Positions 6,140-6,241 of a DNA stretch of 64,000 nt are shown here, piece by piece (position 1 is the stretch's first letter; the number at the start of each line of letters is the position of its first letter). Position numbers and translations under genes: made by a program. The stretch is from an uncultured Actinomycetota bacterium (GTDB lineage: Bacteria > Actinomycetota > Actinomycetes > Actinomycetales > CAVURS01). Under the pieces are notes generated by a model, which was given only the letters and a program-made list of their open reading frames with translations, did no database searches and was not told where the DNA came from. Where the stretch lies: contig CAWCHK010000014.1 in the NCBI GenBank assembly GCA_963795385.1, positions 362,113 through 426,112 on the forward strand. Reading direction: 5' to 3'.

Positions 6140-6241
6140 GTGCTCCCACCCGGCCGCCGTACTCCACGGATGCCGGTGATCAGCCCGCGCCCGGCCCGGA
6201 TTCACCGGCCGTGCGGGAGCACTGCGGCCGGTCGGGAGCAC
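6140..6241. repeat. Imperfect-palindrome intergenic repeat, copy A
   Basis: Left arm GTGCTCCC-ACC-CGGCCGCC-GTACTCCA-CGG-ATGCCGGTGATC. Right arm GGATTCACCGGCC-GTG-CGGGAGCAC-TGCGGCCG-GTC-GGGAGCAC. Same architecture as 8522-8614 and 16602-16704. Confidence 0.7.

Follow-up and report, generated by a model that had tools for sequence, protein, structure and literature searches.

A previously undescribed family of imperfect palindromic repeats at gene ends in an uncultured actinomycete lineage

The 64-kb stretch of DNA analysed here (the window) contains three imperfect palindromes of 83-103 bp, made of GTRCTCCC-N3-CGGCCG modules, that belong to a previously undescribed repeat family. Ten copies at five independent sites come from the window and from independent assemblies of relatives (ENA and JGI), so that an assembly artefact can be dismissed. 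Most members of a small uncultured actinomycete clade carry the element, in several genomic contexts, and the family is restricted to this narrow lineage. Within it, copies have been inherited vertically at fixed sites, with boxes, geometry, and pairing kept and the remaining sequence drifting. With about even confidence, we interpret the element as a REPIN/MITE-like, non-autonomous, lineage-restricted palindromic repeat that is vertically inherited and probably doubles as a 3'-end hairpin. An earlier note on this DNA had proposed a repeat family with three sites; these sites read as it described, and the family recurs in the independent assemblies of related organisms.

Results

Three interrupted hairpins in an ordinary chromosomal region

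The window is an ordinary chromosomal region with a G+C content of 73-74%, and the nearest named genus is Angustibacter (Kineosporiales; 82% for PEPCK and 85% for UPRTase). A database protein encoded on a 1.02-Mb contig matches the window's PEPCK at 100% identity. The first part of the window carries pntAB, a GGDEF gene, tRNA-Arg, pckG, tRNA-Ser, and a LytR-family gene, followed by genes for an acyl-CoA synthetase, a penicillin-binding protein (PBP), a GGDEF-EAL protein, and a BTAD/SARP-type regulator, and further along by clpB, dnaJ-grpE-dnaK, a TPP riboswitch, and hut genes. The TPP riboswitch (47370-47492, minus strand; 62.3 bits compared to a gathering score of 54.3) stands upstream of an operon that includes ABC-transporter/CbiQ-type genes. 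Several genes are broken across two or three frames (4303-5578, 14895-16547, 16836-19494, and 55110-57868), namely the GGDEF gene, the GGDEF-EAL gene, the BTAD regulator gene, and hutU/hutH. The start of the BTAD gene has 2 bases more than in L136 (L numbers denote contigs of relatives), and the long contigs L143 and L145 show like gene fragmentation. These splits look like indel errors of long-read metagenome assemblies rather than pseudogenization, although the two give the same picture here.

The three copies and their genes are listed in Table 1. The module CGGCCGNNNGGGAGYAC (CGGCCG-N3-GGGAGYAC, at most one mismatch) matched the window 11 times, compared to 0.47 expected matches and a maximum of 3 in dinucleotide-preserving shuffles, and 10 of these 11 matches fall inside the three sites. 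The eleventh, alone at 16954-16970 within the BTAD gene, was taken as a chance match. The arm consensus given in the earlier note holds, except that copy A has ATGCCG instead of CGGCCG as its inner left hexamer. Copy B indeed lacks the outer right module, as had been reported, and it ends at 8604 instead of 8614. The spacers that had been described as complementary between the arms (ATC/GAT in copy B and TGA/TCA in copy C) are present. Copy A has spacings of 19/56/19 and a centre without homology to the centres of the other copies.

Table 1. Features of the window, and sites and copies of the element in related contigs. Positions are those of the window; distances run from the upstream stop codon to the start of the copy.
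Feature	Position	Strand	Distance past upstream stop	Description
Copy A	6140-6241	+	≈400 nt, within a 600-nt gap	four modules, two per arm
Copy A, left modules	6140-6156, 6159-6175	+		
Copy A, right modules	6206-6222, 6225-6241	+		
tRNA-Arg(ACG)	6340-6413	-		context of copy A
pckG	6666-8516	+		GTP-dependent PEP carboxykinase; gene upstream of copy B
Copy B	8522-8604	+	5 nt	three modules; outer right one missing
Copy B, left modules	8522-8538, 8541-8557	+		
Copy B, right module	8588-8604	+		single
tRNA-Ser(GCT)	8621-8713	-		convergent with pckG
Copy C	16602-16704	+	overlaps the stop, whose TGA serves as spacer in the second left module	four modules; best palindrome of the three
Copy C, left modules	16602-16618, 16621-16637	+		
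Copy C, right modules	16669-16685, 16688-16704	+		
L074_pck			14 nt	
L136_pck			73 nt	after 4 x 16-bp tandem repeat
L140			10 nt	
L074_btad			27 nt	
L136_btad			6 nt	
L089			12 nt	
L142			≈11 nt	
L074 remnant			3 nt	
Site after pckG				occupied: window (copy B), L074 (PEPCK 91% identical), L136 (89%), L140 (88%); empty: L137, L138, L141 (92%), outgroup L139 (PEPCK ≈80%)
Site before BTAD regulator gene				occupied: window (copy C), L074, L136
Site between acyl-CoA carboxylase gene and TetR gene				occupied: L089, L142; empty: L143
Site downstream of tRNA-Arg				occupied: window (copy A) only; empty: L074, L136, L137, L139

Because the arms are mutually complementary, either strand of each copy forms a single long interrupted hairpin, with folding energies of -67 to -99.5 kcal/mol and z-scores of -3.7 to -9.2 compared to shuffles. 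Copy A folds at -73.5 and -86.3 kcal/mol, and copy C at -99.5 kcal/mol (z -9.2). A covariance model built from the family scored copies A, B, and C at 84.5, 75.8, and 98 bits, respectively, and a scan with it found no additional copy in the 64 kb. Folding and covariance modelling had been suggested in the earlier note as checks; both bear it out, in that all three copies are stable hairpins and the aligned family copies show covariation.

The family in related genomes

Contigs of relatives were obtained through close homologues of the flanking proteins. This search of relatives, which had also been suggested, placed the element on related metagenomic contigs at the same pckG and BTAD sites. 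Presence/absence polymorphism at orthologous sites was observed at the pckG, TetR, and copy A sites (Table 1). The BTAD-site copies in L074 and L136 have the same centre as copy C, the version after pckG in L140 is decayed and expanded, and L074 carries a one-module remnant behind another stop codon. Folding energies of the copies in relatives are -47 to -77 kcal/mol. The density is about 1 copy per 17-21 kb where the family is present, and scanning of ≈300 kb of related sequence with the model gave no more copies. Local copy number is thus modest, with 3 copies per 64-kb window and 0 in two more ≈10-kb stretches of relatives. A covariance-model match at L145:12201-12304 lies within coding sequence and was rejected as chance.

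Two of the related pckG loci have additional structure. The element in L140 (5825-5986) is a composite of two left modules (at 5825 and 5844), a complete core 61 bp on (ATGCTCCA, 55 bp, TGGAGCAC), and an outer right module, an arrangement that may have arisen by nested insertion or through expansion of the centre. In L136, four tandem copies of the 16-bp unit CCCGCGTCGTACCAAA (11870-11934) separate the element from the pckG stop codon. As a separate observation, the tRNA-Ser 3' end GCGGAGGCGGAGGGA is duplicated ≈100 bp off, with a short insert and a hairpin between, in L138 (2091-2107 and 2198-2214) and in L136 (12508-12522 and the tRNA 3' end at 12616). This duplication resembles what an integrative element with tRNA-Ser as attachment site would leave behind.

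Wider searches gave a single real element, the L089 copy already listed in Table 1. No real element was found with the 21-nt right-arm core in 185,579 species-representative genomes, a set that does not include the source genome; the 73 single matches, which are in unrelated phyla, were all assigned to chance because none has a partner arm. The 35-36-nt left-arm pattern had 61 matches in the metagenome collection, with a real element only in L089, and no match in viral contigs. Likewise, blastn gave no match with copy C in 72,556 plasmids or with copy A in the phage collection. In a search of the window against Rfam 15, only two tRNAs and the TPP riboswitch reach the gathering threshold, and copy C at a permissive threshold matched only sub-threshold generic microRNA-precursor hairpins. 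The earlier note had not recognized the element as a described family, in agreement with this lack of an Rfam match; likewise, we found no relevant described actinobacterial repeat family in the literature.

Site history and the relation of arms to centres

In a PEPCK tree rooted with L139, the pckG-site element occurs in L136, L140, the window, and L074, and the same-site element is absent only in the L141/L137/L138 subclade. The simplest reading of this tree would be one ancestral insertion and one later loss. Nucleotide divergence of pckG across these relatives is 10-14%, and the neighbouring non-coding DNA is unalignable. At the BTAD site, the element stays with the regulator gene although the upstream gene differs between species: the GGDEF-EAL gene (14349-16631) lies between the PBP gene and the BTAD regulator gene in the window and not in L074 and L136, where the element therefore directly follows the PBP gene.

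Centres at the BTAD site follow orthology (87% identity between the window and L136). The arms behave differently: among the three window paralogues, identity is 74-82% for left arms and 69-82% for right arms, compared to 61-72% and 70-76%, respectively, between these copies and their orthologues. Copy A has a left arm with 85% identity to that of L089/L142, at a different locus in another genome. Overall, the paralogues are only 57-71% identical, and there are no near-identical recent copies. Arms that are alike within a genome, combined with a centre that follows orthology, would indicate ongoing arm homogenization and not a dead relic. With few copies, this contrast between arms and centres is only suggestive and may reflect either subfamilies or arm homogenization.

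Conserved boxes, fixed geometry, and compensatory pairing

Nine aligned copies share 20 invariant columns, all of them confined to the inner module with its foot (CTCC, CCGG, ACCG, and GGAG.A). The module period is 19 bp in all 12 cases, and the inner left box is separated from the inner right box by 56 bp in 7 of the 10 copies and by 55-60 bp in the remainder. This inner spacing is kept even in copies A and B, despite centres that are non-homologous to the others. An asymmetric, A/T-containing centre motif of the type GA-A-W-T-CGG occurs in 7 of the 9 aligned copies, from three unrelated sites, which implies that the element has an orientation.

The earlier note had taken both the 8-mers and CGGCCG to be conserved, with variable 3-nt spacers. 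The 8-mers are conserved, and the spacers do vary between species, with compensating changes; CGGCCG, in contrast, is a feature of the window genome's copies only, and other hexamers take its place in related species with pairing retained (CCCGCG/CGCGGG in L074 and AGCCCG/CGGGCT-type in L136). The conserved core is the inner module (CTCC...CCGG...ACCG...GGAG.A) with the 19/56-bp geometry, rather than CGGCCG.

Over the 34-pair hairpin, 83.7% of cells are standard pairs, compared to 34-48% when partners are slid by 1-3 columns. Both sides have changed in 13 pairs, and none of 500 shuffles reached the observed pairing or covariation score. The proposal that the unit is maintained as a hairpin is supported by this retention of pairing via compensatory changes. 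G·U pairs (12) compared to A·C mismatches (10) showed no strand bias, so that RNA function is not specifically supported over a DNA-level palindrome. Complementarity is kept, with no sign as to which strand, or whether RNA or DNA, matters.

The inner right foot is GGATCACC at 8580-8587 and 16661-16668 and also in the L074, L089, and L142 copies. The 3'-terminal GGAUCACCUCCUU of 16S rRNA begins with the same 8 bases; the likeness is probably a coincidence. The boxes also include a Shine-Dalgarno-like GGGAG, which is paired with CUCCC.

Placement relative to genes

The claim that the copies sit at gene ends extends to the whole family: each of the 10 copies lies between genes, at the 3' end of one of them, and one overlaps a stop codon. 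The flanking genes are convergent (copies A and B) or tandem and in no case divergent. Except for copy A, L136_pck, and copy C (Table 1), the copies start, in the same orientation, within ≈30 nt past the stop codon upstream.

The 3' ends of the GGDEF gene (plus strand) and tRNA-Arg (minus strand) are separated by ≈600 nt of non-coding DNA, in which copy A lies. This GGDEF gene is frameshifted, with its last similarity at 5578 and a stop near 5740. A separate hairpin at 6284-6317, directly downstream of tRNA-Arg (GGCCCTCGACCGCGG...CCGCGGTCAGAGGGCC), keeps its position and pairing in every relative examined, and the sequence beyond it is unalignable. The pckG stop codon (8514-8516) and the tRNA-Ser 3' end (8621) are 104 nt apart; copy B fills this interval and is the sole hairpin between these convergent genes in the window. 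In relatives without the element (L137, L138, L141, and L139), this junction carries a simple hairpin with a folding energy of -34 to -41 kcal/mol. At copy C, the EAL-domain frame ends at the spacer TGA (16629-16631), and the outermost GGGAG (16697-16701) is 10 nt ahead of the GTG start (16712) of the BTAD/SARP-type regulator gene. In the RNA fold of copy C, this GGGAG would pair with the outer box of the left arm, beside the stop codon of the upstream gene, which suggests translational coupling as a testable side hypothesis.

Of the features of a canonical intrinsic terminator, the copies have the G+C-rich hairpin and the location downstream of a stop codon, but no copy has a T-run after it that could provide a U-tract. 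A scan reported neither such a terminator nor a promoter at the elements.

Discussion

Comparison with known repeats, terminators, and recombination sites

A comparison of the sequences on either side of every copy gave no target-site duplication; around some copies, these flanks simply continue the palindrome. Neither a transposase nor a Y1/RAYT gene (PF01797) was found in the scanned window ORFs or among the precomputed Pfam assignments for related loci, which cover a small fraction of a genome, and no parent IS with matching termini was found in plasmids, phages, viral contigs, or related loci. Where the earlier note suggested a REP/MITE-like element with a possible role as terminator or RNA-stability element, the REP/MITE-like hairpin element stands, the terminator or stability role is plausible, and a signature of mobility (target duplication or transposase) is missing.

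In REPINs, conserved flanks, a length-constrained spacer, and compensatory changes have been reported (PMC3116915). The element is like the GI-GIII REPINs of Pseudomonas fluorescens SBW25 in being ≈100 bp long and extragenic, with two conserved inverted arms, a spacer conserved in length and pairing and not in sequence, frequent compensatory changes, lineage-specific sequence, and long vertical persistence at fixed sites (PMC3116915; PMC3337134). As in a REPIN, inverted conserved arms and a spacer form a hairpin with compensatory changes. However, each arm consists of one or two tandem non-palindromic modules of 17-19 bp and not of a small palindromic REP, the head reads GT[AG]C, a RAYT gene was not seen in the loci examined, the host is a high-G+C actinomycete, and the density is ≈1 per 17-21 kb in the sequence examined. 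REPs and REPINs number tens to hundreds of copies per genome and flank a cognate single-copy RAYT gene. For REPs, a GT[AG]G head has been reported, and the arms here are not 20-60 bp units with this head and a palindromic core of their own; their only self-complementary part is CGGCCG, in the window genome alone. The tandem non-palindromic modules, GT[AG]C head, and lack of a RAYT gene in these loci place the element outside the REP/REPIN family in the strict sense. Actinobacteria are not mentioned in the main text of a RAYT survey (PMC5581495).

Bacterial MITEs and long palindromic repeats, including Correia/NEMIS of Neisseria, ERIC/IRU of enterobacteria, and RUP of Streptococcus pneumoniae (reviewed in PMC3184786), share with the element a length of 80-150 bp, inverted symmetry of the whole element, a long RNA hairpin, intergenic location at gene ends, and presence/absence between relatives. 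The terminal inverted repeats of a MITE are represented here by an element that is an inverted repeat throughout. The direct target-site duplication of MITEs is absent here, unlike in Correia elements, which duplicate TA; no matching parent IS was found in the sequences searched; and those families have neither tandem 19-bp modules nor a fixed 56-bp core. Correia/ERIC/RUP-type elements affect transcript ends and stability.

Intrinsic terminators of high-G+C actinobacteria are hairpins without a U-tract. Like them, the element is a G+C-rich hairpin past stop codons or between convergent genes, where it replaces the simple hairpin of relatives. It differs from an ordinary terminator in a stem that is 3-4 times longer, in its conserved boxes, fixed geometry, and shared centre, and in forming a dispersed homologous family and not a set of independent hairpins. 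Integron attC sites are imperfect palindromes of similar size right past a stop codon, with outer and inner box pairs and a variable centre. They were rejected here, since the boxes are GTRCTCCC/GGGAGYAC instead of RYYYAAC/GTTRRRY, the neighbours are syntenic housekeeping genes (pckG, tRNA, and regulator genes) and not cassettes, no integrase is nearby, and the copies are kilobases apart and not in an array. CIRCE/HAIR operators, CRP/GlxR sites, and dif were rejected on sequence.

What the element may be

Dispersed homologous copies, conserved and rigidly spaced boxes, a spacer with constraints on length and pairing and none on sequence, strictly extragenic placement, lineage specificity, and long persistence at fixed loci together characterize the REPINs of Pseudomonas (PMC3116915) and, in a looser sense, bacterial MITEs. 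This combination argues for the REPIN/MITE-like reading, but three other accounts explain parts of the same evidence. The element might be a classical IS-derived MITE, whose arms would be terminal inverted repeats of a DDE-type IS or transposon with two transposase-binding boxes per end, as at the ends of IS21, Tn7, Mu, or Tn402; the transposase would act in trans, and any hairpin function would be incidental. Consistent with this idea, boxes are repeated at a fixed 19-bp period in each arm, the ends can be read as TG...CA (GTGCTCCC...GGGAGCAC), sites are occupied or empty in orthologous positions, and sequence is common to unrelated loci in different genomes. We nevertheless consider it unlikely, given that no copy has a direct target duplication, that no parent element or transposase was found in the related loci, the 72,556 plasmids, or the phage collection, that copies persist at orthologous sites over ≈10-14% pckG nucleotide divergence, and that positions between the boxes covary to keep pairing, which recognition of terminal repeats on double-stranded DNA does not need.

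This covariation would be expected if the copies were instead purely host-functional RNA hairpins at 3' ends, i.e., bidirectional, U-tract-independent terminators or stabilizers that were never mobile, spread via local duplication or recombination, and were retained by selection. Their location right past stop codons and between convergent genes, the simple hairpin at the same place in relatives without the element, and the persistence of copies at orthologous sites point the same way. Yet a terminator has no need for conserved 8-mers, a fixed 19/56-bp geometry, or a shared asymmetric centre; moreover, G·U pairs are not favoured over A·C mismatches, a U-tract is absent, and the BTAD-site copy stays with its downstream gene while the upstream gene differs between species. 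An exclusively host-functional origin therefore appears improbable to us. The lack of strand bias in pairing, the invariant 8-mer cores, the strictly fixed spacing, and the conservation directly ahead of a regulator gene in three species would all fit an array of double-stranded DNA binding sites for a host regulator or nucleoid-associated protein, with the four boxes as two direct pairs in inverted orientation. However, the non-conserved positions between boxes covary for arm complementarity, which a duplex binding site does not require, and the genes that flank the five sites (pckG, tRNA genes, the BTAD regulator, an acyl-CoA carboxylase subunit beside a TetR gene, and GGDEF/EAL genes) have no common function. 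In addition, the 8-mer is neither avoided nor enriched outside the elements, where it occurs at chance frequency (6 compared to ≈6.5 expected). We judge such an array to be very unlikely.

Against the REPIN/MITE-like reading stand the missing signature of mobility, including the lack of near-identical recent copies, the modest local copy number, the absent U-tract, the lack of strand bias, and a small sample of five independent sites. The unit is ≈85-105 bp long, with one or two 8-bp boxes per arm (left GTRCTCCC, right GGGAGYAC) exactly 19 bp apart and the inner boxes ≈56 bp apart around a short centre; under this reading, it would have dispersed to several intergenic sites in the ancestor of the small actinomycete clade. 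The boxes and their rigid spacing may be recognition sites for a protein supplied in trans, namely an enzyme that spreads or maintains the element. Since the copies sit just past stop codons or between convergent genes, we infer that the transcribed hairpin may now serve as the 3'-end hairpin of the upstream gene, in U-tract-independent termination and/or as a barrier to 3' exonucleases, in both directions. At copy C, the downstream regulator gene would in addition have its Shine-Dalgarno-like GGGAG masked within the hairpin. The terminator or stabilizer role, the box-binding protein, and arm homogenization are thus putative parts of this picture. A bolder version, which we think improbable, is a vertically inherited partnership of repeat and enzyme, analogous to REPIN-RAYT with a different modular architecture in a high-G+C actinomycete, in which a genome-encoded protein would read the 8-bp boxes at the 19/56-bp geometry and keep the arms alike within a genome.

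Significance

Families of short palindromic repeats are well studied in proteobacteria and barely catalogued in Actinomycetota, and the lineage described here is uncultured and known only from metagenomes. The element is a previously undescribed but ordinary example of the REP/REPIN/MITE kind, and there is nothing unexpected in it for a bacterial genome. The family matters for annotation in that copies overlap stop codons, can be mistaken for ribosome-binding sites, and would mark the ends of transcripts. In practical terms, the boxes are a lineage marker, and the element is a compact candidate for bidirectional termination in high-G+C hosts. For evolution, the family provides a clean case of a repeat fixed at loci across species with boxes, spacing, and pairing kept, and such long residence at fixed loci is the behaviour that drew interest to REPINs as long-lived genomic residents.
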